Assembly: GCA_035583355.1 (NCBI GenBank)
Contig: DATEZQ010000008.1
Span: 36,610 to 100,609, forward strand
Length of the DNA stretch: 64,000 bases
Origin: Minisyncoccota bacterium
GTDB lineage: Bacteria > Patescibacteriota > Minisyncoccia > Phycocordibacterales > UBA6899
Direction: 5' to 3'
Under the pieces are notes generated by a model. The model was not told where the DNA came from. It worked only from the letters and a program-made list of their open reading frames with translations, and did no database searches. Below, one piece after another: positions 3,492 through 63,962 of this stretch. How positions within the stretch are numbered: the stretch's first letter is position 1; each line of letters starts with the position of its first letter. The position numbers were made by a program, and so were the translations under genes.

Positions 3492-5183
3492 TTACTGAAT
3501 CACCGTCTCCGTTTCAGTAACGATTGGCTTTTGCTTCCAGAACTTCTTATGTACTGCATCCCTAGTCTCCTTATACTCGGTATTATCAAGAATAGTAAAG
3601 AAGAACATTCCAACAATAACTGCAAGACCTCCGCTAATAAGACCCTGACCCAAAATACCGAGCAGTGTCTTTTGATCGATGTAGGTCACCGAAAACTGGA
3701 GCATGTAATATGCAACAGCACCCATGATCACTGCGACAGAGAAACTCTGCACAAAAGCGCGACGTATGCCAAGCCACACGTGATTCACAATCTTATGCAG
3801 CGCAACCAGCAACAAACTGACATTAATAATCATGCCAAGGGAATACGCGAGCGGCAACATCAGGACACTTGTCCCCTGCAATCCGTCAACACGAAGGATT
3901 GTCTCAATGAAATATCGGAATATCGGAGAATATCCAAAGAATGCGGTGAGGCCATATGCAAAAGCAATAATAAGTGCTCCTGAAAATGCATTGATGGTGA
4001 GTGGTACCTTCGAGTTGCCCGCGGCATAGAATGCACGAGTGAACAGCGAGACGAGTGACTGTGCGGCAACAGAGATTACGAAGAGCGCAAGTGCTGCTGC
4101 AACAAGTCGTGTCGCACTCCAATCAAAACGACCCGTACCTAGGACCACACGGACTATTTGTGCACGAAGCACAACAAAAAGCGCAGTAACAGGGAGCGAC
4201 CAAAAGATGATATGCCTTGCCGCACTTAAGAGATGCTCGCGGAAAAGATGATACTCCTCCTGGGCCCAGAATTTTGCAAATGTCGGAAATGCGGCAACAG
4301 AATAGCTGGAACCGATTATTGTGAACGTGATACTCTGCAGCGTCATGCCGAAAGTAAATATTGCTACACCACCCTCGACGTGTGACGCGATACCAATGAT
4401 GGCAATAGTTGCAAGATGTGAGGACGTGAGAGCAATTGTTCGAGGTATTGAAGTAAGAAACACGCGCTTTACTTCTTTCATGTGCCCAAACAAAAATCCC
4501 GGAACAAGCTTTTCGCGCACAAGCACAGGGAGCATAATAAGATCCTGAAGCAAAGCCCCACAGACCACACCCCACGCAAGACCATAGATTCCAAAATATG
4601 GATAGAGAAATATGATTCCAAAAATGATACCAAGGTTATAGACTGCAGGACTTATCGCATAGACAAAGAAGCGCTGCAATGACTGCGTCAGCGCACCGTA
4701 AAGATTTGAAAGACCCTGAAAGATTGGCGAGAGTAAAAGGATGCGTGCAACATTGATATTCACCGCCTGTTCCGCTGGGCTAAAACCAGGAACAAGCCAG
4801 GGAACGATCTGTGGCATGAAGACAAATGCGACACCACAAATAATAACAAAAGCTGATATAAATGCAGTGAACATTGCACTCATAAATTTCTTCAGCTCAC
4901 CATTTCCCTTTTTCGCATATTCTGCAATGAAGGGAATAAGTACGGTGATTGCTACCGCCGACCCCAGTGTGTCATAGAGAAAATCTGGCACTCGGAATGC
5001 AGAGTAATAGATATCGAGTTGTGTTCCTGCTCCGAAATGAGCAGCGAGTAGACGATCTCTAAAGAATCCAAGCAGTTGTGCAACGAGTGCCATCGAACCC
5101 AAAAGCAGCGCAGCCTCATGAAGACTGCCCCACTCTTTGTGCAATAGGTTAATTATTCTGCGTACCATATATGTTTTCCCCAA
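3492..5183 (-). CDS. murJ: Lipid II flippase MurJ (MviN)
   Basis: 563-aa polytopic membrane protein. The N-terminus LLGFFRDRLLAAHFGAGTQLDIYYSAFRVPDFLYDTLGSAV is typical MurJ/MviN. Confidence 0.9.
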   Translation of the reverse strand: MGKTYMVRRIINLLHKEWGSLHEAALLLGSMALVAQLLGFFRDRLLAAHFGAGTQLDIYYSAFRVPDFLYDTLGSAVAITVLIPFIAEYAKKGNGELKKFMSAMFTAFISAFVIICGVAFVFMPQIVPWLVPGFSPAEQAVNINVARILLLSPIFQGLSNLYGALTQSLQRFFVYAISPAVYNLGIIFGIIFLYPYFGIYGLAWGVVCGALLQDLIMLPVLVREKLVPGFLFGHMKEVKRVFLTSIPRTIALTSSHLATIAIIGIASHVEGGVAIFTFGMTLQSITFTIIGSSYSVAAFPTFAKFWAQEEYHLFREHLLSAARHIIFWSLPVTALFVVLRAQIVRVVLGTGRFDWSATRLVAAALALFVISVAAQSLVSLFTRAFYAAGNSKVPLTINAFSGALIIAFAYGLTAFFGYSPIFRYFIETILRVDGLQGTSVLMLPLAYSLGMIINVSLLLVALHKIVNHVWLGIRRAFVQSFSVAVIMGAVAYYMLQFSVTYIDQKTLLGILGQGLISGGLAVIVGMFFFTILDNTEYKETRDAVHKKFWKQKPIVTETETVIQ

Positions 5184-7640: not shown

Positions 7641-7980
7641 TTCCACCCGATAAGCCGAATTCTGTACCGACCGAAGTCGGGGACAATCATTTTTCTCCGA
7701 TGCTTGTTACCAAGCACCTCTAGCGGTACTCCACACTCTTGCGAGTGGGCACGACCTTGCACGGAAGTAAGGGTTTAGCCGTTTCACCCACGAGGTTACC
7801 CTCATGGCTCACCCCACCGAAATGGGGGCTTGAATTCTTTCGTCCTCAAGCGTCTCTGCTCGCACCTCGCGCATTACTGCGGACGGGAATTACCCGCTAC
7901 CCTGCTGCACATATCTTTCGACATGGCCCGAGTTCGGACTTTCCTCCCCTTTTTCAAGGAGCGATTGTCTGGATGGCTTG
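7641..7980 (-). ncRNA. rnpB: RNase P RNA, bacterial type A
   Basis: On the minus strand the 5' part reads CCATCC AGACAATCGC TCCTTGAAAAAGGGGAGGAAAGTCCGAACTC, matching the universal GGAGGAAAGTCCGGGCTCC and the E. coli AGACAGUCGC. The 3' part ACAGAATTCGGCTTATCGGGTGG matches ACAGAACCCGGCUUAUCGG. P1 pairs CCATCC with GGGTGG. A hairpin plus T-run terminator lies immediately 3' at 7610-7640. The ORF-track protein 7739..8050 (+) is antisense to this RNA and spurious. Confidence 0.85.
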
Positions 7981-8071
7981 CTCATTATTACACACAAAAA
8001 GCACATTGACAAGGTACAAAATAGAATGTATTATGCGCCCAGTCCTTTGAACCTTTCCTACAGGAGACTCC

Positions 8072-15101: not shown

Positions 15102-16175
15102 TTACGGTAAGCTTCTGATAGCATTTGGATAGATCAATCTGTCTGGATTAAGGCTTGGGATAGAGGTGTATTGGTTTGCAAATAAATTTATTAGCCTAAT
15201 ATTTCCGTAAATAGAACCAAGGCCCGAGTAAATATACATTGAACTTTTATTTGCATCCTTGTCGAGCATTTCAATCCCCCGCATCTGCTGCCGAAATTCA
15301 CTCTCAGTAATATGAAACGTATTTCTTACAATTCTATATGCTTCATTTGGGTTAGTTTTCCAAAAATCATACGCTCTAAAATATGCGCGTGCAAACGCCT
15401 CAATTGCACTACCATACTCTTCCACATATGCTGCATTAAACGCAATGACATCAGTTATTACACCAGGACTTGCAGCGCTTGTATATTCTTCAGTTGCGCC
15501 AACATCTTTGGCCATAGAAACGTATGGCTCATAAGTGATGATATGGTCAACAAGACCCTTCTGGAGAAGCTCAACCGATGCCTCTTCTGATCCTGCATCA
15601 ATGAACTCATAATCTTTCGGGGACATATTGAATGATCGCAAAGCCCACTCGACAAAGAAATCCGGTTTACCGATATATGCGATTTTTGATCCTTTTGAAA
15701 TAGCAATCGGTCTTGCTCCTTTCCTTGTAAGCACTGCATCAGCTCCGAGAGAGCGATCAGTGATCAGCACAATATATGCGTGAATGCCATGATCACGCGC
15801 CTCATACACAATCTCTGAGGTCAATCCCGCACGGGCATTAATCTTCCCAGAGCGCACATCATCCACGAGATCATCCACACTCAAGTATGTATGCAGTTCG
15901 ACATTGAGTCCTTCATCCTGAAAATATCCAAGCTTTTCCGCAAGTGGAACAATAAGAAAACCTGGCCACAATTCAAAACCAAAATTTATTGGAGGAGACT
16001 TTATCGAAGGGGTCGAAAAAAATATTCCTCCACGCATCCCAAAACATGTTGGAGAGAGTACAAAGCAACCATACGCACTACTCAAAGTGAGTGTGACAAC
16101 AAAAGCGGTGAGGATTTTGATTCTCAAGTTATCCATTACTTTATTATAGTATAGTGTTATCGCAGGAATATGCAA
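15102..16175 (-). CDS. Periplasmic substrate-binding protein, NMT1/SsuA-like. True start may be the internal Met near 16136.
   Basis: Signal/TM segment (LRIKILTAFVVTLTLSSAYG) followed by a ~300-aa alpha/beta domain resembling the NitT/TauT-type SBP fold. Confidence 0.5.
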   Translation of the reverse strand: MHIPAITLYYNKVMDNLRIKILTAFVVTLTLSSAYGCFVLSPTCFGMRGGIFFSTPSIKSPPINFGFELWPGFLIVPLAEKLGYFQDEGLNVELHTYLSVDDLVDDVRSGKINARAGLTSEIVYEARDHGIHAYIVLITDRSLGADAVLTRKGARPIAISKGSKIAYIGKPDFFVEWALRSFNMSPKDYEFIDAGSEEASVELLQKGLVDHIITYEPYVSMAKDVGATEEYTSAASPGVITDVIAFNAAYVEEYGSAIEAFARAYFRAYDFWKTNPNEAYRIVRNTFHITESEFRQQMRGIEMLDKDANKSSMYIYSGLGSIYGNIRLINLFANQYTSIPSLNPDRLIYPNAIRSLP

Positions 16176-16199
16176 ACAAAAACGCGCAACATGCGCGTT

Positions 16200-18146
16200 T
16201 TATGCAGCCTCTAGCCCTGCCAAGAAAGATGCATCCCAAGAGTCCTTGATATCTGCAGAAACTTCCTTTAAAAGTTCTTCTCTGCTTTTATGCGGAATTT
16301 CTTCATACTTCTCCGCGATAGTTTCATCTCGCCTTGCTTGAGGTGCAAGCATTTCGTCCCAAGCATCCTCAGCAGGAGGAATTGCCGCCACCACTGAATC
16401 CACCACAGTACGAGGAGGAGGAGGAGGAGGAGGAGCAACATGTTTCTCTACGGGTACACGAAGCGGAGCTACTGGTTTCCCCACAACAGATACAAAAACT
16501 TTCTGCGACGATACGGGAGCACTTACTCTACTTTCGTCACCATTTGAGACTTCAATAGGTGCAACCGGTGTTCCTTCTTGCCCTTTCGGTTTACTATAGC
16601 GCGGATACGACGGATGCACTTCTGGATTGGTTGCAACCTGCACTGCAGTGCGTGAAAAATGACTCGTACGCATCCATGGCAACCATTCCGACGCGCGTGC
16701 ATGTGGCTGCGTAAAGACTGCAGCAACCTGCGGATATGCAGCAGGAACCATTGTTGCAAACGGCACGACTCTCGGAGGGAGTGCGAGAGGATGCATTGAG
16801 GGTGTGAGTTGCGCTACTGCATAATGAGGCACTGCAACAATCGGTGTCACAACTTGCTGTTCTGCAATTACATCCTCAACTGATTCATTGAGAGGAGATG
16901 GCGTAACCTTACTCTGTACTGCTTCAGCCAATATACGATCAGAAATATCCCTTTCCACTTGCGGAGGAGTTGGGTCAATGACAACAACAGGTGATGTATT
17001 TTTTTGTATTTCTTGTATTGCCTCTTGTGTGTTTTCTTCTTCTCCCTTCACAGGAGTCCCCTCTTCTTCGGTAAGCTCCAAACCACCAGCGACCATCGAT
17101 GTTTCGTCTGGTGTATACCAAGAAGCATCTGCTGCTGTGGAAACCTGCTCGACAGAGGGTGGAAACACCGAGGGGCGCTCATCTTCGACTTCCTCACGAA
17201 CGACCGTGCCTACATCGATTGACTGCGCTACGGTTTGTATGAGGTTTTGATCAGGAGCAAGGATGATTTCCTCCGTCTCGGGCTGAACAAGTGCTTCTAC
17301 AGCGGGCACCATAATCGCCTCAGATTCTGGGAGAGCGATAGACTCATCCTCATGTTGTGCAAGTGCATGTATCTCGGGTAGCGCGAGCCCTTCCTCTGGC
17401 TCTATTTGAATAGCATTATCTGCACGTACGGCGAGGTCATGCTCCGGCTCCACTATGACCTCCGCCCTTTGCGACACCTCAGGAAACTGAGCAAAAAATG
17501 GAGCAGGTAATATATCGACAGTCTCGGCAGGTGGCGCAGAAATAGGCTTCATTGAAAGTGGTGGCATCAATGGCGCATCATCAAAATGTGCAGTCACATC
17601 ACTGCTTGTTTTTACTGGCCAGTGCATAGGAAGTGCCTTTGGAGCAGGCGAAGGTGGCACTTCGAGTTCGAGAGACATGGGGGCTGGCGGTACTGGAGTG
17701 TTGTTCACACTTTCCATGGGAGGAGGAGCTTCTTCCTCATCAGAAACAAGATTGAAAGAAAGTGCCCCCCTGCGTAGCGGAGCAGAGAGTGTGCTACTAC
17801 CACTACTTATTCCTACGGGCTGATTCCCAACAAGGCCTACTGCAGGAGGTATCGTCTTCGTGAGCAGTTCCTCTCTGCTGAGTAATGGCACTGAGATCAG
17901 TTGTGGAGGAACATATGTGATGACTGCAGCGGGAGGCAAATTAATATTGAGTACCTTCAATAGTTCTCCAGCATGCGGGAATATAAGGCCATCCTTACCC
18001 CCAGCACAAGGCACATATCCGTCACGACAAAGCCGCTCGATGTATTCTGGCGAAAAATTCGTCAGCTGCGCAGCAACATCGAGAGTCACAAAAACATTTT
18101 CGGTTCCCTGCCCTACGAAAGAAGCACCGGCATCGCTTTCGGTCAT
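16200..18146 (-). CDS. Excisionase-type HTH (HTH_17-like) protein with a ~550-aa Pro/Glu/Val-rich disordered tail
   Basis: The N-terminus VFVTLDVAAQLTNFSPEYIERLCRDGYVPCAGGKDGLIF fits the HTH_17/excisionase pattern. The remainder is low-complexity and acidic/proline-rich, ending PPPPPPPR…. Start placed at the internal Met (MTESDAG); this removes the 32-bp overlap with gatB in the ORF-track model. Confidence 0.5.
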   Translation of the reverse strand: MTESDAGASFVGQGTENVFVTLDVAAQLTNFSPEYIERLCRDGYVPCAGGKDGLIFPHAGELLKVLNINLPPAAVITYVPPQLISVPLLSREELLTKTIPPAVGLVGNQPVGISSGSSTLSAPLRRGALSFNLVSDEEEAPPPMESVNNTPVPPAPMSLELEVPPSPAPKALPMHWPVKTSSDVTAHFDDAPLMPPLSMKPISAPPAETVDILPAPFFAQFPEVSQRAEVIVEPEHDLAVRADNAIQIEPEEGLALPEIHALAQHEDESIALPESEAIMVPAVEALVQPETEEIILAPDQNLIQTVAQSIDVGTVVREEVEDERPSVFPPSVEQVSTAADASWYTPDETSMVAGGLELTEEEGTPVKGEEENTQEAIQEIQKNTSPVVVIDPTPPQVERDISDRILAEAVQSKVTPSPLNESVEDVIAEQQVVTPIVAVPHYAVAQLTPSMHPLALPPRVVPFATMVPAAYPQVAAVFTQPHARASEWLPWMRTSHFSRTAVQVATNPEVHPSYPRYSKPKGQEGTPVAPIEVSNGDESRVSAPVSSQKVFVSVVGKPVAPLRVPVEKHVAPPPPPPPRTVVDSVVAAIPPAEDAWDEMLAPQARRDETIAEKYEEIPHKSREELLKEVSADIKDSWDASFLAGLEAA

Positions 18147-18162
18147 GCAAATATTATAACAT

Positions 18163-18255
18163 GAAGAAGGCGAGGAGGAATGCAAAATACAGGGAGTAAG
18201 GGAATGAGGGAATAATGAAATACAAAAAACACGACATTTATAGCGTCGTGCTTTT
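18163..18255. repeat. G-rich heptad element, partial copy E3, with the gatB terminator
   Basis: aagaaggcgaggag + cagggagtaagggaatgagggaataatg, then the hairpin acacgacatttatagcgtcgtg with a T-run on the minus strand. Shares aagaaggcgaggag and gacatttata with copy E2. Confidence 0.5.
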
Positions 18256-18258
18256 TGT

Positions 18259-19668
18259 TTAAGCGAGAAGCTTTGTGAATACTTCCCCAAGGAGCTTTGG
18301 ATTACCGGCTCCCTTCATGGCTTTCATGCCCTGCCCAACGAAGAACATCAAGACTGAGGCCTTTCCTGCTTTGAACTCAGCAACTTGCACAGGGTTCGCT
18401 GCAATAATCTCACCAGCGATACGCTCAAGCTCACCAAGATCACTTTTTTGAATCAAACCATTCTTCTCTGCAATCTCACGAACATCTCCGCCTTCACGAT
18501 AGATGATGAGGAGCGTATCCTTTGCACCACGAGAAGAAAGTTCATTCGCATTGATCATCCCCGCAAGATCGATAAAGGTCTTCGCATTAACCTTAAGAGG
18601 TAGTGCGGGTTCAGACTTAAGAAGACTTACAAGGTCACTCGAGATATAGTTCGACGCAAGACGAATGGAAGCAACATCATCACCGAGGGTCTTAGTTACT
18701 TCATCAAAGAGTGTGCCAAGCATTTCATCAGAAACATAAATCTCGGTGACTTTTGCGTCAATACCAAGCGCTAGAATGCGCTCCCTTTTCTGCCAAGGCA
18801 ACTCGGGGAGAGGAGTTAATTTCTCATACTCCTTTCCAAAAACCTCTGTACAAACAAGCTTCGGAATATCCGGATCTGGGAAATACCTATAATCATTTGC
18901 TGACTCTTTCTTGCGCTGACTGAATGTCTTTCCAGTATTCTCATCCCAACCTCGTGTCTCTTGGATGATCTTCTCGCCTGCTTCGATTGCGGCCTCCTGA
19001 CGAGCCATTTCATAGACAATCGCCGCACCAGCCGCACTGAAAGAGTTAATGTTCTTCACCTCAACCTTTGTACCAAAGGCATCCGTCTTCGAGATAGAAA
19101 TATTCACCTCAACACGCATCTGCCCTTTATCCATATTTGCCTCAGACGCACCAAGTGTGCGTAATAGAAGTTGAAGCTCCTTGCCAAAACGCATAGCAGT
19201 TTCCGCATCATGGATAACTGGCTCTGTCACGAGCTCCATTAATGGAACACCTGCACGATTGTAATCGACAACGGAAAAATCGCCCATATCATGACGCGAT
19301 GATCCAGTATCTTCCTCGAGATGAATACGAGTCAACGCAACACCAGCAAGACTACCACCCGAAACAAGCGGGTATTTATATTGTGTAATTTGGTATCCCT
19401 TTGGAATATCTGGATAGAAATAGTTTTTACGATCCCATTCAGTGAAATCCGCAAGCTGTGCACCCACTGCTTTTCCTACGCGGAGCACATGTTCAACTGC
19501 CTGAAGATTCACTACAGGAAGTGTCCCTGGCTGTGCAGTACAAACAGGGCAGATATTTGTATTTGGACGCTCTTCGTCAGGGTCGTTTTTACATGCGCAA
19601 AACATTTTCGCTTGCGTATTGAGCTCAGCATGAATCTCAAGACCAATTGTTGCTCGATAGTCAGACAT
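18259..19668 (-). CDS. gatB: Asp/Glu-tRNA amidotransferase subunit B
   Basis: The GatB N-terminus MSDYRATIGLEIHAELNTQAKMFCACKND …CPVCTAQPGTLP, and the C-terminal GatB/YqeY domain. Confidence 0.95.
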   Translation of the reverse strand: MSDYRATIGLEIHAELNTQAKMFCACKNDPDEERPNTNICPVCTAQPGTLPVVNLQAVEHVLRVGKAVGAQLADFTEWDRKNYFYPDIPKGYQITQYKYPLVSGGSLAGVALTRIHLEEDTGSSRHDMGDFSVVDYNRAGVPLMELVTEPVIHDAETAMRFGKELQLLLRTLGASEANMDKGQMRVEVNISISKTDAFGTKVEVKNINSFSAAGAAIVYEMARQEAAIEAGEKIIQETRGWDENTGKTFSQRKKESANDYRYFPDPDIPKLVCTEVFGKEYEKLTPLPELPWQKRERILALGIDAKVTEIYVSDEMLGTLFDEVTKTLGDDVASIRLASNYISSDLVSLLKSEPALPLKVNAKTFIDLAGMINANELSSRGAKDTLLIIYREGGDVREIAEKNGLIQKSDLGELERIAGEIIAANPVQVAEFKAGKASVLMFFVGQGMKAMKGAGNPKLLGEVFTKLLA

Positions 19669-19756: not shown

Positions 19757-20170
19757 ATGGAATCCAAAAATGAACTGATACCTTGGAAGAGAACTCTTGA
19801 TGGGCTCTATCACGCAACATTCCCAAAGCACATCTCCGTGGGAAATTTGGTGACCATGTGGGCGGAGATATTCAATGACTACTCGGAGCACTTTGCGGGA
19901 GCTGGCCCCCTACTTATCATCGTTGATGGGTCAAAGGTTGAACGCTATGAAGAGCAAGCAATATCAATATCAAACTTGCATGTCATTCCAGGGAATACAG
20001 AAGCACTGGTTGCAGTGCATAGCAGATCGCCTGCATACATACAACTCTCAAACAGTTTTTTTCGCACTCACCCACTACCTTCGAACGTGCGCTACTTCGA
20101 CAACGAACAATCTGCGCGCAATTGGCTAGAGCAGACTCTCGATAAATACAACAAAAGTTTTCATGTATAA
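19757..20170 (+). CDS. Hypothetical protein (137 aa), possibly an alpha/beta fold
   Basis: Clean ORF ending at a bidirectional terminator shared with the convergent gene. No family recognised. Confidence 0.45.
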   Translation: MESKNELIPWKRTLDGLYHATFPKHISVGNLVTMWAEIFNDYSEHFAGAGPLLIIVDGSKVERYEEQAISISNLHVIPGNTEALVAVHSRSPAYIQLSNSFFRTHPLPSNVRYFDNEQSARNWLEQTLDKYNKSFHV

Positions 20171-20192: not shown

Positions 20193-20627
20193 TTACACAC
20201 GTGTCGATGCGAAGTAGTACTCTGGAGTCCACAGTGTACTCACAGGAAAAAGTCGAAGCGCAGGTTTCTCTTCCCAGGAAGTGAGACCAAACACATGCCG
20301 CGAAGGCCCAAGGTCAATCAACGAACCAAGTGCAATGACGGGAAGGAGTAACTGCACATCTGTGTGCTGTTCTCCAAATTCCAATAATTCGATCGCTTCA
20401 AGGGGTCTACGTAAACGTGCATGCATTGACCAGAGTATGCCATCCGAACTCGACAATTCCTTCGTTCCAAAAAGATCAACAGGGATGGTCTTGGTACCCG
20501 TCTCCTTTGTACGGATTTGACGTAAAACAATATCCGAAATGAAATTTATGTATGCATCATCGCGCAATATTTTCTCTATATCCCTATCGTAATCGACGAT
20601 GACGGGATATGTTGCCCGAATAGACAT
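20193..20627 (-). CDS. Hypothetical protein (144 aa)
   Basis: Clean ORF. Its stop codon lies inside the bidirectional hairpin aaaagccccacaagacggggctttt at 20169-20195. No family recognised. Confidence 0.45.
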   Translation of the reverse strand: MSIRATYPVIVDYDRDIEKILRDDAYINFISDIVLRQIRTKETGTKTIPVDLFGTKELSSSDGILWSMHARLRRPLEAIELLEFGEQHTDVQLLLPVIALGSLIDLGPSRHVFGLTSWEEKPALRLFPVSTLWTPEYYFASTRV

Positions 20628-20716: not shown

Positions 20717-21490
20717 CTACTTAGCGATATCCTGAAGAACACATACTCCATGCCCCTCTGGCTTTACATCGCGATAAATTCGTTCAATGAGTCCATCAGG
20801 CCCGACGACGAATGTTGTACGCTTGTTGAACAAGCCACCCCAGACACCGCAAGCTTTTGCAAAGGCATGACCCTCGTCAACGAGTAGCGGATAAGTAATC
20901 CCTTCCTTCGCGATGAAATGTTCATGACTTTCCAGAGAATCAGGAGACACTCCAAAGACGCGCACGTTTTGAATACCAAACTCTCCGGCGAGCTTTGAAA
21001 ACTCATGAGCCTCTGTTGTGCATCCCGATGTTTCATCCTTCGGGTAAAAATACATGACATAGCGTGAGCCAAGCAAATCGGCATTGGTAGTAGTGCCCCC
21101 TTCGGTCGAAAGCAAAGCGAATGAAGGAAATACACTCCCCACGTCGAGTACGCCCGGCGTGAGTGGCTGTGCACTCGCGACAGATTCAGACATATGTTTT
21201 ATTTCTTCTTTGATAAGCGCGTTTGCAATCGTCGATTTCGCCTTCACGGTCTTCACTTTCTTAGGCGCAACTTTTTTCGCAGTGACCTTCTTCGCAACTG
21301 AAGCCTTTACAACTTTCGCCTTCTTGGCTGCGACTTTCTTTGCTGTGACTTTTTTCACTGCGGCAACCTTCTTCTTCGGAGCGGCCTTCTTCGCAGTAAT
21401 ATGTTTCGATGTGACACGCTCAACAACCAGTCGTGTAGGTGGCTGCTTTTTCTTTTCAACGTGTCGTGTGATAGTGAGTTTGATTGCCAT
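20717..21490 (-). CDS. bcp: Bcp-type peroxiredoxin (thiol peroxidase) with a ~100-aa N-terminal histone-H1-like Lys/Ala-rich extension
   Basis: C-terminal Prx motif YFYPKDETSGCTTEAHEF plus the rest of an AhpC/TSA fold. N-terminal AKKAAPKKKVAAVKKVTAKKVAAKKAKVVKASVAKKVTAKKVAPKKVKTVKAKS in the same frame with no stops. Confidence 0.8.
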   Translation of the reverse strand: MAIKLTITRHVEKKKQPPTRLVVERVTSKHITAKKAAPKKKVAAVKKVTAKKVAAKKAKVVKASVAKKVTAKKVAPKKVKTVKAKSTIANALIKEEIKHMSESVASAQPLTPGVLDVGSVFPSFALLSTEGGTTTNADLLGSRYVMYFYPKDETSGCTTEAHEFSKLAGEFGIQNVRVFGVSPDSLESHEHFIAKEGITYPLLVDEGHAFAKACGVWGGLFNKRTTFVVGPDGLIERIYRDVKPEGHGVCVLQDIAK

Positions 21491-22710: not shown

Positions 22711-23673
22711 TTATTCGAGCGCAAGACGCGCGAGCGCAATCGCTGCTTCTTTTGTTTTTGCAATAGCAAGAAATCCTTTCTTGTGACAAAAGACAGAACC
22801 TGGGATTCCAGTAACCGCTTCAAGATCAGGCCCCATAAGTCCACACCATGCTGCAGGAAGTTGCTTGCGACTATCAAATGTATTCACATCACTACGCACC
22901 GCCTCAACACGCCACGAAGTATCTGTATCTGGAGAAAATCTTGGAGACACGACAAAAAGTGGCTCAGGAAATTTTGCAACTTCTTCCTCCCAAGGAAGAT
23001 CACGCTCAATGACGATGACGCGCTTGTCTTCCTCATGAGTCAATAACTCCCGAACAAGGCGCGAACCTTCCTCATCATCACGTGCAACCGCAAGCTCACG
23101 CTCCATGAAACGTTTTGCAAGTGGAAGAAGTTCTGCGAACTGTACGTCGATACTGACCCCCGCCTCCTTTTCTTTCCATGTAGGATGAAATGCAAACACG
23201 ATGTGATGAAAGAGTAATGGCTGTACACCAGGAAGAATTGTATTGTACGTACTCAGCCCATTGTCGCCAGCATCAACGGGAAATGCAATCTTTTTCTCAA
23301 TAGTTTCCCATGCAAGATTATCTCCATTGCAAAGCTCTAAACCAAAGTATTTCCAAATAAGCCCAAATGATGAGTATGGTATCCCATTGCGCTCGCCCCC
23401 ACCATCACGCTGGTGATGATCAAAGCGTCCTTCATGAGGAACAAGCGTCCCACCGACATCACAAACAATATCAGCTGCATTGATAACCTCAGAATCGCGT
23501 GATCGATTCACGACATAGGAAAGACCCATCCGATCGAGATAAATCTGCAGTGTTGCAACGGCAAGTAATTCATCGGCATGGAATGAGCCCGAATGTGTCA
23601 CGATACGGACAGGCCTATCGGAAGGAAGTGGACATGGTGAATTCATGTTTTCATTATACGTGACATACATCAT
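22711..23673 (-). CDS. MYG1/UPF0160 family metal-dependent hydrolase
   Basis: IVTHSGSFHADELLAV and the DHHQ motifs characteristic of UPF0160/MYG1. Confidence 0.7.
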   Translation of the reverse strand: MMYVTYNENMNSPCPLPSDRPVRIVTHSGSFHADELLAVATLQIYLDRMGLSYVVNRSRDSEVINAADIVCDVGGTLVPHEGRFDHHQRDGGGERNGIPYSSFGLIWKYFGLELCNGDNLAWETIEKKIAFPVDAGDNGLSTYNTILPGVQPLLFHHIVFAFHPTWKEKEAGVSIDVQFAELLPLAKRFMERELAVARDDEEGSRLVRELLTHEEDKRVIVIERDLPWEEEVAKFPEPLFVVSPRFSPDTDTSWRVEAVRSDVNTFDSRKQLPAAWCGLMGPDLEAVTGIPGSVFCHKKGFLAIAKTKEAAIALARLALE

Positions 23674-58940: not shown

Positions 58941-61900
58941 TTAATTTGCTGATACACTGATCAAACCATTATGTGTGAGAGGCTTTGTTCCAAATGGGAC
59001 ATAAAGTCCGAAGTAGATATTATTGACTACCGGCGTCGTTGAGTTCGGCTTTGGGAAAGTCAAACCAAGCGTTGCCGTGCTTGTCGAAAGCGTCGTACAT
59101 AATGAGCAAGATGCAAAATCAAATGTCGAAGTTGCAACCTTTTCGTTATCAACAGTAATCGTACTATCTGTCGTCGTAAGATCTGAACCCGCAATATCGA
59201 TACCAAACTGCGCATTTCCCGTATTCTGGAGAGTAGCGGAAGGATTCGAAAACGCAGGAGTCGTACTTCCAATCTCCATACTACCGAAGTCCACCGCTCC
59301 CGTAATGAACGCAAGAGCCTTAAGCGTATTGAGTTCAGCATCGACACTCGCAGAATCGGAGACATTTGCCTGATTATGCACATGCACCGAAGCAGTCCAG
59401 ATATCACTTGCATATGTACCGACATCAGTTGGCTCTGCAAAGTATTGCAGATCTGCCTGACAAGAAATCGTACAAGATACACCCGCACATGCAGACAAGG
59501 CACACGAAGTCTTTAGAGGAGTATAACAATTGTTATCATCCGCCACACAAGACTCACCGAGACTCTTGCGATAAATCGTACCCGTTGCTACCGGTGAGAT
59601 ATCAGCATAACCGCTGTAATCAGTTACTGTACCAGTTGCCATCACCGTCGTTGTTCCACCTTCATTAAGAAGCGAAAGCGTTGGAGTGGTCCAGTTCCAG
59701 TTTGAAATATGCGGAGGATGTGAGACTGACGCCTCAGCAACCTTCGTATATGACACAAGACGATTTCCATTATTGGATACTCGGAAACAATATGTCGGCT
59801 GAATCGCACTAGGAGTGAATTGCAACGCATACTCTACTTCAGTGAAGTAATTCGCGGCGATCGCAAGTCCAGTCGTCTTATTCGACGGATCCTCCACAAT
59901 ACGTCCTGAGACAAAGTTCAATCCCTTCGGAGTAGAGAGGAGTGGTGTTGTACCATCACCATCAGCGAAACTTGTAGATGTAGCCATACACACCGCATCC
60001 GTTGAGCACGAGCTCGATAGAGGAACGGGAAGGTAATTTGCGTCACCAACCGACTCACAGTTCGATGCCCCACCCTTAATCGCATAATCGAGTTCGAGCT
60101 GCTGTCCAGAGAGTGGGGTTCCCGTGTTTCGGATTCCGAAACGTAGACGTACTTTCTCACCAAGCTGTGCTGCACCATATGCGGCATTTTCACTAGTGAT
60201 CCAAGTTGCTCCACCATGCTGCTGCGGCGCAAGCACTATCGTTGTCGGAGTGCCTGCAATATATGGAGTAGCGGTAACGTTATCCCAACCACCCTTCTGG
60301 TACCAGTATGAGAATCCAATCCCTGACCCAGGAGCATAGCTGTCTACTGCAGAAATACTTGCAACCTGCGTACCACTTGGGTCAAACAGTGTTGCATTAA
60401 TCGTTCCTCCTGACTGATAGATCCAATCAATACGCGCAGTATACCAACCCTGTGTGGAAAGTACGACATCCTGAGAAGAAACTTCTGAGGATACATTCGG
60501 TAAGAATCCATCCTTTGTCGCATCCTTCACAAGTCGCACATTCTTTGCGGCCTGCTGTGGTGAAACACAGAAGCCCCAGTTCGAACCACTCGTAGAGTTT
60601 GCTCCGAAGGTCAAACAGGTATCGTCATTTGATGAACCATCAATATAAATATTCTCTCTAATTGTCACACCCGCACCTACTGTCGTTCCGCGCGTAACGC
60701 CCGCAGAAAGATTTGCCATACCCAACGTTTGTCCTGTATCAGTCATTGAACGCAAATACTTGAGTCCAAGCTGTTCAATCGGCGAACGCGAAGCCATATC
60801 AAGTGTTCTAAATGATGCAGTGTCACCCGTCATACCTGAGAGACCAGATTCACCGTCAAAGAAATAGGTGAAGACCGAGGCACCCGAGGATGACGCTGCG
60901 GCACTCGCATTACCATAATAGACATAGACATCCGCACTTGACTGCGCAGCAAGCGTAGGTACCTTAACCCACACATTCGCACTCGCGGTCGTGTATGTTT
61001 CGATCCAGAATGGAATCGTCGTTGTACCATTGTTTGCAGTGAAACGAATATCTCGGTAATCTGCCTGCATTTGTGACTGATATGGTAAATTGACTTTCAC
61101 TGCAACATTCGTTGCAGCTGAGCTTGTATTGTTCACCACATGGACTCGCTGGCGATGCGTCCAACCCGAGGCTGCACCACCGTACCATTCACTATCCGGC
61201 ACCGCCTCCCCTCCGTCGTCATGACGCCACCTATAGTAACGTTGATCAACGAACTGACAGAGCGAATCATCCCATCTGAATGCTCCACAGGCGCCTGGTG
61301 AACCATCATTATCTGCGGACTCACCCGCAAGGTTCCCTACCGCACTACTGAAGTTCAACGCATTCGTTGAAGTACCGTTCAAGTAGGCGTTGACCCCTGA
61401 AGTGTGACCCGTATCAAGTGCGAAGCTGTTATTTGCAAGAATTGCGCCTGAGTTTGCATCAACAGTACTACCATCGATGTAAAGTATATTTCCCGTATCG
61501 ACTCCTGTTGCAAGATCTGCATTCTCAAGTGCCGTAATTACCGTATTTCCCGTAAGCTGCAGACCGTTCGCAGTAGTATTACGCATCTTGAAGTAACGAC
61601 CCTCGAAAGTTCCACTCGAGACAGAAAGACCATAAGTTCCTGACAGTGACTGTACTGAGGTTACTGCACCTGAGCTACCGACTATATGTAATTCTGTCCC
61701 ACTATTCCATGTCGCCGTGCTCCCTGGTGCGAATCGCACATTGACGGTTCGTGAAGCAATCGCAGTACCATCAAAATTCGTCGTCGCCGACCAATAATCA
61801 CTTCCGACATTGCGTACGTAATTACCATAAATATTGAGAGCTCCATTCACATTTGCGTAGTTCTGCGCATAGAGCGAAGCACCCCCTGCCGTAGTGACGC

Positions 61901-63962
61901 TTGTCGATGACGCATTCCAGACCGCTACCTGTGTATTTGCGCCAAGCTCAATGGCATTATATGCAGTCGCAGGTGCACTCTTTGCATTTATCGTGGAAGT
62001 ACCTGTTTTTTCAAGTCGCAGTGTACTTCCCGTCCAAGTTCCACCAATACTATTAGTAAAGAGATCCTGCACCACAAGCCTTGTTGAGGGCGACTGCACA
62101 AATGCATTCGCAGTCTTGAGCGTTAGTGACTTCGTTGCTGTTGCATTCGCCTCTATGGTAAATCCACCACCAGCACCGTCGACAATAAGATTCGTGAACG
62201 TAGAATTTCCTGGATTAATGAGCTTCCCTGTTGAGGTTGCGAACATGCGCACCGTCGACGTTGCTCCTGCGGTGAAACTACCTGCAATATTCTTGAATGT
62301 TCCACCAATTGCGAAGTCTGCTACAGGAAGAGTAAGGCTACCTGAATTAATGTAGACATCTCCTGTTGTTGTCGCATTCTGCACATTCGTCGCAAAGTCA
62401 CCATTGGCAATACGGAGATTTGCAAAGGCTGAACCACCAGGCACCAGGAGTCGGCTACCCGCTCCTGTCACCGAGACAGTACCGCCATTTGCAATAAATG
62501 CACCACCGATGTTCTGGAAGTCATTCCCGACTGCGAGTGTACCTGCAGGAAGCGTCGGCGTACCCGATGCAATAGTGAAGTTCCCCGTTGTTGTTGCACT
62601 ATCAAGGAAGCTCCACGCACCAGTTCCAATGAAAGTAAGATCCTTGAAACTACTTCCACTTGTGCGAATTTGCTTTCCCGTTGTAGTAGAGGTCATAAGG
62701 ACTGTACCACCGTTCGCATTGAACGTACCAAGATTACTGAATGTTCCACCAACCGCGAATGTACTTGCAGGTAGCGTTACTACTCCTGTAGTGATAATGA
62801 CATCACCCGTCGTAGTTGCAACACCCGCAATAGTCCACGAGCCCGCACCATTAAAGGTGAGATTCGTCAGTGTTGCCGGAGTAGCAGCTGTGAGTGAACG
62901 GCCTGCGACAGAGGAAGTGAACGTAAAGTTTCCTGCACCACCCGAGACAATCGCATTCGCACCCATCATGAGGTCACCGCCAACGGTATACACCTCTGCA
63001 CCACTAGTAATCCAAGTTGCACCTGCCCTGATTTCAATATCTCCTTCTATCGAAGAAGTATTGGTATTTCCCGGGACTGCGGCATTACCACCAGGCGCAT
63101 AAGTCTTTCCACTCCACACGATGAGCTTCGTATTCGTATCAAGAGTGAGCGCTCCTCCTGTTACTCGTGCAGGGATATTCGCATACTGATCTTTGTCATA
63201 CAAATCAATGCTTGTATTTGTAATAGCCCCCGTCTGCTCGTTTCGCACAATGACCGTATTTTCGTACATGTCATAATCCGCAATGTTTGTCATTGGATTA
63301 TAGGCATATGTCACTGCCTTCACACCACTACTTGATGTCGCGAAAAGTATGAGCGTATCAGCACCTGCGGGAAGGATATTCGGAATACTGAAACTACCGT
63401 CAGCTGCACTACATGCTGTACCCGGCATTGTTGTAGAAGCATTTGCTACACGAAGGAATATGTTTTGTGTTACTCCATTACATGCAGTTGATGGAGTAAC
63501 CCCATCACTCTGATAGAAATGACCAGAAATCGAGAGCTGTGCAGTTGAATCATCCCATACGAGATAACCAGGATTTCCTGCAGGGTCAACGTCATAGACC
63601 TCACCATCCCTTCCACCATAATGATTTACGAATCGCCAAGCAGACACGGTTGCACCTGTGGCGGTGATATTATTTCCGCCGGGAGCGATGAAGCCAAGTC
63701 GATACAGAATCTTCACAGGATTTGCAGTAATAACCGAAGCGGCAATGGTCATGAGTGACCCTGATCCGCTCGGATTCCTAAACACCACATCATCCATCTG
63801 ACTAACTTTCACTGAGCCCGTAAGTGCAGTACCGGTTGCATTCGCGTCGGAAATATCAAGATACTGCATTGTTGTCGAAGCGCCACCAATTGAAAGTCCA
63901 AAGGTTCCACTGAGCGCGCGAACTGTAGTTGAAGCAAGTGGATCACCAATCATTTCAATCAC
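58941..63962 (-). CDS. Very large secreted/surface protein with repetitive beta-helix-like segments (over 1670 aa; N-terminus may lie beyond the window end)
   Basis: Continuous ORF to the window edge. Thr/Gly/Ser/Asn/Ala-rich ~40-aa repeats (…TTGDVIITTGVVTLPASTFAVGGTFSNLGTFNANGGTV…). Cys-rich C-terminal region. Confidence 0.7.
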   Translation of the reverse strand: MIEMIGDPLASTTVRALSGTFGLSIGGASTTMQYLDISDANATGTALTGSVKVSQMDDVVFRNPSGSGSLMTIAASVITANPVKILYRLGFIAPGGNNITATGATVSAWRFVNHYGGRDGEVYDVDPAGNPGYLVWDDSTAQLSISGHFYQSDGVTPSTACNGVTQNIFLRVANASTTMPGTACSAADGSFSIPNILPAGADTLILFATSSSGVKAVTYAYNPMTNIADYDMYENTVIVRNEQTGAITNTSIDLYDKDQYANIPARVTGGALTLDTNTKLIVWSGKTYAPGGNAAVPGNTNTSSIEGDIEIRAGATWITSGAEVYTVGGDLMMGANAIVSGGAGNFTFTSSVAGRSLTAATPATLTNLTFNGAGSWTIAGVATTTGDVIITTGVVTLPASTFAVGGTFSNLGTFNANGGTVLMTSTTTGKQIRTSGSSFKDLTFIGTGAWSFLDSATTTGNFTIASGTPTLPAGTLAVGNDFQNIGGAFIANGGTVSVTGAGSRLLVPGGSAFANLRIANGDFATNVQNATTTGDVYINSGSLTLPVADFAIGGTFKNIAGSFTAGATSTVRMFATSTGKLINPGNSTFTNLIVDGAGGGFTIEANATATKSLTLKTANAFVQSPSTRLVVQDLFTNSIGGTWTGSTLRLEKTGTSTINAKSAPATAYNAIELGANTQVAVWNASSTSVTTAGGASLYAQNYANVNGALNIYGNYVRNVGSDYWSATTNFDGTAIASRTVNVRFAPGSTATWNSGTELHIVGSSGAVTSVQSLSGTYGLSVSSGTFEGRYFKMRNTTANGLQLTGNTVITALENADLATGVDTGNILYIDGSTVDANSGAILANNSFALDTGHTSGVNAYLNGTSTNALNFSSAVGNLAGESADNDGSPGACGAFRWDDSLCQFVDQRYYRWRHDDGGEAVPDSEWYGGAASGWTHRQRVHVVNNTSSAATNVAVKVNLPYQSQMQADYRDIRFTANNGTTTIPFWIETYTTASANVWVKVPTLAAQSSADVYVYYGNASAAASSSGASVFTYFFDGESGLSGMTGDTASFRTLDMASRSPIEQLGLKYLRSMTDTGQTLGMANLSAGVTRGTTVGAGVTIRENIYIDGSSNDDTCLTFGANSTSGSNWGFCVSPQQAAKNVRLVKDATKDGFLPNVSSEVSSQDVVLSTQGWYTARIDWIYQSGGTINATLFDPSGTQVASISAVDSYAPGSGIGFSYWYQKGGWDNVTATPYIAGTPTTIVLAPQQHGGATWITSENAAYGAAQLGEKVRLRFGIRNTGTPLSGQQLELDYAIKGGASNCESVGDANYLPVPLSSSCSTDAVCMATSTSFADGDGTTPLLSTPKGLNFVSGRIVEDPSNKTTGLAIAANYFTEVEYALQFTPSAIQPTYCFRVSNNGNRLVSYTKVAEASVSHPPHISNWNWTTPTLSLLNEGGTTTVMATGTVTDYSGYADISPVATGTIYRKSLGESCVADDNNCYTPLKTSCALSACAGVSCTISCQADLQYFAEPTDVGTYASDIWTASVHVHNQANVSDSASVDAELNTLKALAFITGAVDFGSMEIGSTTPAFSNPSATLQNTGNAQFGIDIAGSDLTTTDSTITVDNEKVATSTFDFASCSLCTTLSTSTATLGLTFPKPNSTTPVVNNIYFGLYVPFGTKPLTHNGLISVSAN

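Follow-up and report, generated by a model that had tools for sequence, protein, structure and literature searches.

A rare protein family of Paceibacterota-type bacteria with a winged-helix head and a motif-bearing tail: a candidate envelope-linked scaffold

The window considered here is a 64,000-nucleotide stretch of an uncultured, groundwater-type Minisyncoccota bacterium (GenBank assembly GCA_035583355.1, contig DATEZQ010000008.1). On its minus strand, directly after gatB, lies a gene for a 648-residue protein that consists of a compact head with a predicted helix-turn-helix (HTH) and a long acidic, proline-rich tail. Judged by its sequence, this tail is a string of conserved motifs together with a near-invariant, indel-free module, and is not featureless. 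The protein belongs to a new, very rare family in which a known fold is joined to modules absent from curated families. From these features we infer, tentatively, a lineage-restricted, modular and multivalent scaffold or tether of Paceibacterota-type bacteria of the Candidate Phyla Radiation (CPR), linked to the cell envelope.

The open reading frame (ORF) runs without interruption from 16200 to 18290 and encodes 696 residues when read from TTG 18290, in which case it overlaps gatB (18259–19668) by 32 bp. An earlier note on this DNA, made from the letters alone, had described this overlap and its removal by the internal start at 18146, and the coordinates agree. The sequence indicates that ATG 18146 is the true start, since gatB is followed by a terminator of its own and 6 nt ahead of this ATG there is a conserved TGnTATAAT; the choice of start is thus strengthened. 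In orthologues the start lies 105–113 nt past gatB. The resulting protein begins MTESDAGASF, contains the HTH peptide quoted in the note (VTLDVAAQ...GLIF) as residues 20–56, and matches, with 100% identity, ‘hypothetical protein VJ579_03715’ from the metagenome-assembled genome of a Candidatus Paceibacterota bacterium (NCBI). Seven homologues share 41–59% identity with it, and the full-length ones span 616–673 residues and keep the frame. Aligned pairwise by codon with two orthologous loci, the gene shows synonymous differences in about 50% of the codons whose amino acid is identical, the near-invariant block included. The whole frame is therefore translated and selection acts on the protein, contrary to the note's alternative of a non-coding region with stops in orthologues. 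A hidden DNA or RNA element behind the invariant block is rejected, as synonymous sites vary freely there and Rfam has no match to it; over the window Rfam returns only one distant tRNA.

The tail had been portrayed as almost entirely low-complexity. The protein is indeed rich in Pro, Val, Ala and Glu (13.0%, 11.4%, 11.0% and 10.2%; isoelectric point (pI) 4.4), but 143 of the 548 tail positions (26%) are invariant in all seven full-length orthologues, 205 are identical in at least six, and 161 fall in conserved blocks. The intervening sequence is fluid: gaps in one or more orthologues affect 112 positions of the window protein, which itself lacks 100 of the alignment columns. Behind a first motif shared by close orthologues, the H-x-D-[DP]-x-P-L-[FLM]-P part of the second (Table 1) occurs in every member of both branches of the family, branch A, which includes the window protein, and branch B. 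The acidic spacer that follows carries a net charge of −40 over residues 196–438 (−34 to −46 in close orthologues) and contains moderately conserved islands at residues 298–313 (PDQNL..IDVG), 330–346 (PSVEQ..WYTP) and 386–409 (PVVVIDPTPP..RIL.EA).

The spacer leads into the module at residues 435–518, where identity reaches 84–97% per 20-residue window. This Pro/aromatic module alone, of all parts of the protein, is basic and rich in aromatic residues. The distance from PVPH to PWMRTS is exactly 51 residues in 13 of 13 members, even at 24–30% overall identity. The module has no match in Pfam, nor in the PDB by sequence-profile search with the core alignment. In every branch-A protein the best window for interfacial hydrophobicity is the region of WLPWMRTS, at −1.1 to −2.9 kcal/mol per 18 residues on the Wimley–White scale, and the net charge of the windows listed is 0 to +6 (+2 here); in the distant members the module window carries +1 to +6, with a hydrophobic moment of up to 0.6.

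Beyond the module, a strand-like motif and a proline run precede two acidic-aromatic motifs, the second lying inside a C-terminal helix predicted at residues 622–647, with AlphaFold2 confidence (predicted local distance difference test, pLDDT) of 74–81. The consensus of this helix is KSREELLKEVSADIKDSWDASFLAGLxAA; a classical cationic membrane-targeting helix was considered here and rejected because of the acidic charge of the helix (net −4). In each of the eight close orthologues G-L-x is followed by a terminal Ala-Ala (last two codons, 16203–16208), and distant members end differently. The Ala-Ala ending resembles degrons of the ssrA type, C-terminal signals that ClpXP or Tsp recognise. The PPPPPPP run remarked on earlier is present at residues 572–578. 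No orthologue has it, so that this lineage-private run is most simply a recent slippage product, and the length of its microsatellite could vary. A search for the family motifs in the other ORFs of the window and of the loci retrieved found none.

The family is small. An exhaustive hidden Markov model search of 1.84 billion cluster representatives returns 18 matches, and three of these (P0015, P0017 and P0022), eukaryote-like repeat proteins that match the linker only, were rejected as compositional, leaving about 15 clusters. A motif scan of 185,579 GTDB species representatives finds the module in two genomes only, and a scan of JGI metagenomes adds one further locus. The word-indexed protein search returns zero matches with the core (module) alignment and only the eight known close proteins with the full close-orthologue alignment, where low-complexity words probably filled the candidates. 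Searches of NCBIfam, Pfam (E up to 10) and PHROGs give no significant family for any part of the protein, and none of Pfam 2025, NCBIfam 2026, PHROGs, the solved structures and the literature searched covers the module or the motifs. The literature search likewise found nothing relevant on CPR proteins that join disorder with an HTH or proline-rich region, or on MerR-like tethers.

Branch A is defined by the head, H-x-D-D-x-P-L-x-P, PVPH-N51-PWMRTS, two D-x-W-D-x-x-hydrophobic-[FL] motifs and a position directly downstream of gatB, all of which the window protein shows. Its distant members (P0010–P0013, L005 and L009) are 387–489 residues long, with 24–30% overall identity, and keep the order of head, LPxHW...H-x-D-D-x-P-L-F-P, acidic spacer, module and two D-x-W-D-type motifs. 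Their module follows the pattern PVPH...HPLA.PP.V.PF.T..P....K.AA.[FY]TQP.A.A..W[LM]PWMRTS, and their two final motifs read D-[SA]-[WFL]-D-x-x-hydrophobic-F, the last one standing 1–2 residues from the C-terminus. The branch-A gene adjoins gatB in the window and at L001, L002, L005 and L006. The gene order Obg, AhpC, a 137-residue gene, gatB, the branch-A gene, an NMT1-type binding protein, GAPDH and histidine kinases is kept in the window, L001 and L002, and partly in L005 and L006.

Branch B comprises seven clusters (P0014, P0016, P0018–P0021 and P0023). It shares the head with branch A (hhalign probability 98.8%, E 1e-16), H-x-D-[DP]-x-P-L-x-P in seven of seven clusters and D-x-W-D-x-x-L-[FL] in four of seven. 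In place of the module it has a strongly hydrophobic 19-residue segment (Kyte–Doolittle mean 1.9–2.4) and then a C-terminal domain of 80–93 residues; the proline-rich part sits N-terminal of the membrane helix, on the HTH side. The branch-B gene occupies the same gatB–GAPDH interval, as the first gene of a cluster in which other genes follow it tightly. These clusters, at 5001–11121 of L012, 1624–7686 of L011 and 5001–10931 of L010, all lie between gatB (or a NUDIX gene) and GAPDH, the locus without gatB upstream being L010. At L012 the genes behind branch B are pilM, pilN-like and pilO-like genes, a further gene and pilB. At L008, L010 and L011 they encode a protein of 317–350 residues, one of 243–264 residues and a Big_5 surface protein of 856–894 residues. 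The 317–350-residue proteins are weakly WxLIP_PGBD-like; homology to PilM was rejected for them (BLASTP E 0.8).

The head is modelled confidently by AlphaFold2 from an eight-sequence alignment, with pLDDT 83–91 over residues 15–100. Its elements are helices at residues 22–29 and 33–42, a β-hairpin at 47–58, a helix at 59–66, a strand at 84–89 and a helix at 91–97. The model shows the arrangement of MerR/Xis winged helices, a helix-turn-helix followed by a two-stranded wing and then a helix, and structurally it comes closest to the DNA-bound domains of Xis, BldC, TnrA and MerR; at the level of the model, this type of fold is established. Membership of the Pfam family HTH_17 (PF12728), by that family's own gathering threshold of 27 bits, is not reached on sequence. 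The full protein scores 12.3 bits (E 0.22) and residues 1–105 score 16 bits (E 0.015). HTH_17 is nevertheless the top Pfam family in six of the thirteen family N-termini, with a best E of 0.001 and always below 27 bits. The HTH_17-like character proposed in the earlier note thus stands as a modelled fold with weak but consistent profile support, short of the family's threshold. A PDB sequence-profile search with the head alignment yields nothing meaningful, the head shows no relation to phage genomes, and PHROGs gives only a weak excisionase-like similarity. All 13 N-termini share Cys40, which is part of an R-L-C in the second helix; Arg38, Arg41 and Lys51 are also present in the head.

Outside the head and the C-terminal helix, little is modelled with confidence. 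The AlphaFold2 models rest on shallow alignments of 8–12 sequences, and 475 of the 648 residues have pLDDT below 50, with low stretches at residues 101–160, 176–385 and 415–592. The spacer stays below 50 except for a helix at 400–411, and the module has values of 34–57 with no fold predicted. When residues 394–648 are remodelled with four distant homologues added, the mean pLDDT is 54, the predicted template modelling score is 0.15 and no fold appears. Owing to its high Val, Ala and Leu content, the tail falls marginally on the ‘folded’ side of the charge–hydropathy test. The earlier description of a disordered tail is thus backed by the low pLDDT, the Pro content and the indels and opposed by the charge–hydropathy test; disorder of the extended PEVK or TonB-like kind is plausible.

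Table 1. Features of the gene and its protein in the window.
Feature	Position	Strand	Remarks
Intrinsic-terminator-like hairpin and T run	18222..18258	−	directly after the gatB stop; separates gatB from the gene
Extended −10 element TGTTATAAT	18153..18161	−	ends 6 nt before ATG 18146
Coding sequence	16200..18146	−	648 residues and stop; start at ATG 18146, not TTG 18290
N-terminal folded domain, residues 15–100	17847..18104	−	MerR/Xis-type winged HTH (model) with β/α extension at residues 84–97; HTH core 17949–18095
Motif APLRRGALSFNLVSDEEE, residues 122–139	17730..17783	−	APLRRGALSFxLVSDEEE across orthologues; close orthologues only
Motif LPxHWPVKTS-x7-HFDDAPLMPPL, residues 172–197	17556..17633	−	family-wide
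Acidic Pro/Glu/Val/Ala-rich spacer, residues 198–434	16845..17555	−	variable, indel-rich
Module, residues 435–518, PIVAVPHYAVAQLTPSMHPLALPPRVVPFATMVPAAYPQVAAVFTQPHARASEWLPWMRTSHFS..ATNPEVHPSYPRYS	16593..16844	−	84 residues, near-invariant, indel-free
WLPWMRTS	16662..16685	−	invariant; followed by a basic stretch
Strand-like motif KVFVSVVGKPVAP, residues 549–561	16464..16502	−	
Triplet microsatellite, 8 perfect copies	16412..16435	−	CCT on the coding strand, GAG on the plus strand; encodes PPPPPPP
First acidic-aromatic motif EDAWDEML, residues 593–600	16347..16370	−	
C-terminal acidic amphipathic helix KSREELLKEVSADIKDSWDASFLAGLEAA, residues 620–648	16203..16289	−	
Second motif D-S-W-D-x-x-F-L	16221–16244	−	inside the C-terminal helix
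Hairpin AACGCGCA-TGT-TGCGCGTT and T run	16178..16199	−	immediately after the stop; the gene's own terminator, as read from the sequence

As an envelope-linked scaffold or tether, the protein would work as follows. The head would hold DNA or another partner, and the extended acidic spacer would act as a flexible arm. The conserved motifs, those of the acidic C-terminus among them, would be docking sites that recruit partner proteins; they are read in this way because their shortness, their degree of conservation and their clear separation by variable spacers do not suit a structural role. The invariant module would fix the protein to the envelope, either peripherally through its Trp-rich basic patch or through a conserved membrane protein. 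The link to the envelope is suggested by the branch-B sisters, since these, at the same gatB–GAPDH locus, carry a transmembrane helix in place of the module and share operons with genes for surface proteins or type IV pili. Attachment is further favoured because the module is basic and aromatic-rich and holds the most favourable interfacial window in each branch-A member. Neither the core nor the tail is predicted to fold autonomously, even with distant homologues added, which fits segments whose folding may be coupled to binding. The tether or scaffold idea of the earlier note gains from membrane-anchored relatives that have the same head, first motif and locus and lie in envelope or pilus operons.

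Several observations weigh against this account. The branch-A gene shares no operon with envelope genes, and the window protein has no transmembrane helix, its maximum 19-residue Kyte–Doolittle mean being 1.43. Its WLPWMRTS window reaches only −1.8 kcal/mol, with a low hydrophobic moment of 0.24, and near-invariance over 84 residues argues for a protein–protein interface, of which it is more typical than of lipid binding. Homology between branches A and B past the head and the first motif is not statistically established, as hhalign covers residues 4–83 only. The head itself (residues 18–68) is neutral to acidic, with a net charge of −6 to +1 and a pI of 4.2–8.1 across 13 members, unlike typical Xis and MerR DNA-binding domains, which are basic. 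Moreover, a sub-branch of branch A (P0013 and L009) is without the head, starts at the LPxHW motif and keeps all tail motifs. Each functional step of the account is an inference. The neutral-to-acidic charge and the headless sub-branch are also the reasons why the label ‘DNA-binding regulator’, which the earlier note had applied, is not established; on its modelled fold the head is a putative DNA binder. The headless gene (L009, 547–1700) is not next to gatB; it adjoins a gene that looks hemerythrin-like by eye.

The main rival, possible though rather unlikely, is an adaptor of the cytoskeleton, divisome or pilus platform, in which the winged-helix head binds a protein and the tail motifs dock further machinery. 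Heads of this kind are known from the RodZ–MreB, SepH–FtsZ and MerR-like CbpM–CbpA pairs, and the charge of the present head suits such a role. So does the branch-B layout of a cytoplasmic HTH, a transmembrane helix and a small outside domain, which resembles RodZ, and so does the position of one branch-B gene directly upstream of pilM–pilN–pilO–pilB; H-x-D-D-A-P-L-[FL]-P also loosely resembles short hydrophobic Leu-Pro docking peptides. The structural matches of the head are, however, to DNA-bound domains, branch A has no adjacent cytoskeletal gene, the RodZ head is an XRE-type HTH of another fold class, and profile searches of NCBIfam, Pfam and the PDB find no sequence similarity to known adaptors.

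Less likely than such an adaptor, and improbable on the whole, is a conventional transcription regulator, perhaps autoregulatory, whose tail would regulate or oligomerise without any envelope link. The MerR/Xis/BldC-type fold and the gene's own promoter are in keeping with it. So are the ATTCCC direct repeats and the fixed-distance ATTTTrCATT conserved upstream of the −10 element in the window and L001; BldC and Xis proteins bind direct repeats head-to-tail. Yet the tail makes up 85% of the protein, and its conserved motifs are more numerous and more persistent than the head, which is lost in one sub-branch. The protein is also without a MerR-type coiled-coil dimerisation helix or an effector domain, its head is not basic, and its sister proteins are membrane-anchored.

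The remaining candidates are effectively excluded. An exported wall-spanning surface protein, comparable to Gram-positive cell-wall spacers or TonB-type Pro-rich rods, is very improbable: the extended Pro/Glu/Val/Ala-rich composition and the surface-protein genes beside branch-B relatives speak for it, but no signal peptide, N-terminal transmembrane segment or sorting motif is found in the 648 residues, the N-terminal domain is a cytoplasmic-type HTH, and the Pro-rich part of branch B lies on the HTH side of its membrane helix. Scarcely credible at all is a mobile-element excisionase or recombination directionality factor, to which the weak HTH_17 and PHROGs similarities point, or an artefactual ORF in low-complexity DNA, given the housekeeping synteny (Obg–AhpC–gatB–branch-A gene–NMT1–GAPDH) conserved in at least five genomes, the lack of a nearby integrase and of phage-genome similarity, a length of 648 residues against about 50–80 for excisionases, and a frame and amino acids that are conserved while synonymous sites vary.

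Comparison with known systems shows where the protein departs from each. The Xis/BldC-type MerR-like winged helices share the fold, but they are stand-alone domains of about 50–70 residues, whereas the head here carries a 550-residue tail and an extra strand and helix (residues 84–97), is not basic, and stays at 12–16 bits against the 27 of HTH_17. Excisionases are small stand-alone proteins beside an integrase in a mobile element, a context absent from this locus. MerR-family regulators have a coiled-coil dimerisation helix and a C-terminal effector region, whereas AlphaFold2 predicts no long helix after the head; Pfam MerR matches neither this protein nor the 13 family N-termini.

Three further comparisons are analogies drawn from general knowledge. 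The nearest in function may be RacA of Bacillus subtilis, in which a MerR-like head and a long connector lead to a far end that binds a membrane-associated partner. RacA is, however, a protein of 184 residues with a coiled coil, while the window protein has a Pro-rich acidic spacer with no coiled coil predicted and no sequence similarity to it, and thus departs from the RacA plan of MerR-like head, coiled coil and C-terminal DivIVA-binding end. The branch-B layout is reminiscent of RodZ, a bitopic protein that links MreB to the envelope and consists of an N-terminal HTH, one transmembrane helix and a small outside C-terminal domain. In RodZ the head is of the XRE type and the linker is periplasmic; in the present family the long linker is on the HTH side, and the window protein, without a transmembrane helix after its HTH, does not share the bitopic layout of RodZ and ToxR. 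The SSB hub offers a third analogy, with a nucleic-acid-binding-type head, a long Pro-rich linker and acidic-aromatic motifs with a terminal Phe or Leu. In distant members, with IDDSWDSAIFK as an example, the motif stops 1–2 residues short of the C-terminus, resembling the SSB tip ...DFDDDIPF, which recruits many partners. SSB has an OB-fold head in place of the winged helix and is not homologous, and in the window protein LAGLEAA comes after the motif, which leaves no free Phe carboxylate.

A bolder form of the envelope-linked scaffold, which is doubtful at present, is an undescribed CPR-specific hub, defined by the WLPWMRTS module and the D-x-W-D-x-x-hydrophobic-F motifs, in bacteria without most known organisers. 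Its Xis/MerR-type head, co-opted for the purpose, would link the nucleoid physically to the envelope. It would, with the same doubt, entail two interchangeable versions at one locus, one soluble or peripheral and the other transmembrane-anchored and associated with operons for surface proteins or type IV pili. Such a hub might conceivably be a functional analogue of RacA–DivIVA or of the SSB linker-and-tip hub, a parallel that is equally speculative.

The gene appears to form its own transcription unit. A hairpin equivalent to the one after gatB is present at L001, L002, L005 and L006. The arrangement cATGtTATAATat-N-ATG is kept in the window, L001, L002 and L006, and the order terminator, cATGtTATAATat, ATG recurs at the last three with a gap of 61–113 nt between gatB and the start. 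With hairpins on both sides and a promoter of its own, the gene is therefore, as read from the sequence, monocistronic and enclosed by two terminators. No Shine–Dalgarno sequence precedes ATG 18146; because of this and the short distance of the −10 element from the ATG, the mRNA, made from an extended −10 promoter, is probably leaderless. The pattern TATAAT-N5-8-ATG has eight occurrences in the window (for example at 16134–16148, 18144–18158 and 23644–23658 on the minus strand), where shuffling predicts 2.0; one of them, TATAAT-N6-ATG at 16148–16134, belongs to the next gene, NMT1. Leaderless mRNAs may thus be common in this genome. Codons 1–30 (18057–18146) show fewer synonymous differences, in 20–38% of identical codons against about 55% elsewhere, which may reflect an initiation constraint on a leaderless mRNA.

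Upstream of the −10 box, the non-coding block 18162–18221 is conserved with L001 (about 7900–7990), although synonymous sites between the two are near saturation. Its sequence, GTATTTCAxTATTCCC..ATTCCC, contains a direct repeat, and ATTTTrCATT stands at a constant distance of 22 nt ahead of TATAAT. The block may serve as an operator or as an UP-like element.

The rest of the window is ordinary chromosome, with LepA, MurJ, NAD synthase, GroEL, RNase J and others; it contains no integrase and has no similarity to phage genomes. The 137-residue gene (19757–20170, plus strand) diverges from gatB and is conserved in L001 and L002, at 137 residues and on the opposite strand; its sole Pfam match is a sub-threshold one to DUF7793 (23.7 bits against 26). 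Between it and the AhpC gene lies a 144-residue ORF (20193–20627, minus strand) without a Pfam match. This ORF is either a lineage-specific insertion or spurious, because the two genes adjoin directly in L001 and L002. The AhpC/peroxiredoxin itself (20717–21490, minus strand) has an N-terminal Lys/Ala-rich extension of about 110 residues with AKKV-type, histone-H1-like repeats, and its AhpC domain covers only residues 117–237; the relatives' proteins have 229–252 residues, with a domain start at residue 85 in L005. A 1673-residue ORF lies at the end of the window (58941–63962, minus strand).

CPR bacteria, or Patescibacteria, have tiny genomes, and the organisation of their chromosome, envelope and surface appendages is little known. 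A protein of about 650 residues at a fixed housekeeping locus, with a quarter of its tail invariant and an indel-free module of 84 residues, is unlikely to be dispensable ballast. For the scanning of genomes, its lesson is that a low-complexity look does not mean a featureless sequence. If the protein were merely a lineage-specific regulator, it would still bring a domain (WLPWMRTS) and motifs that the catalogue does not yet have. If it is indeed a scaffold, it would be a clean bacterial case of function through short linear motifs in a long flexible arm, and as a scaffold between nucleoid and envelope, or of a larger machinery, it would offer a handle on cell organisation in this lineage.

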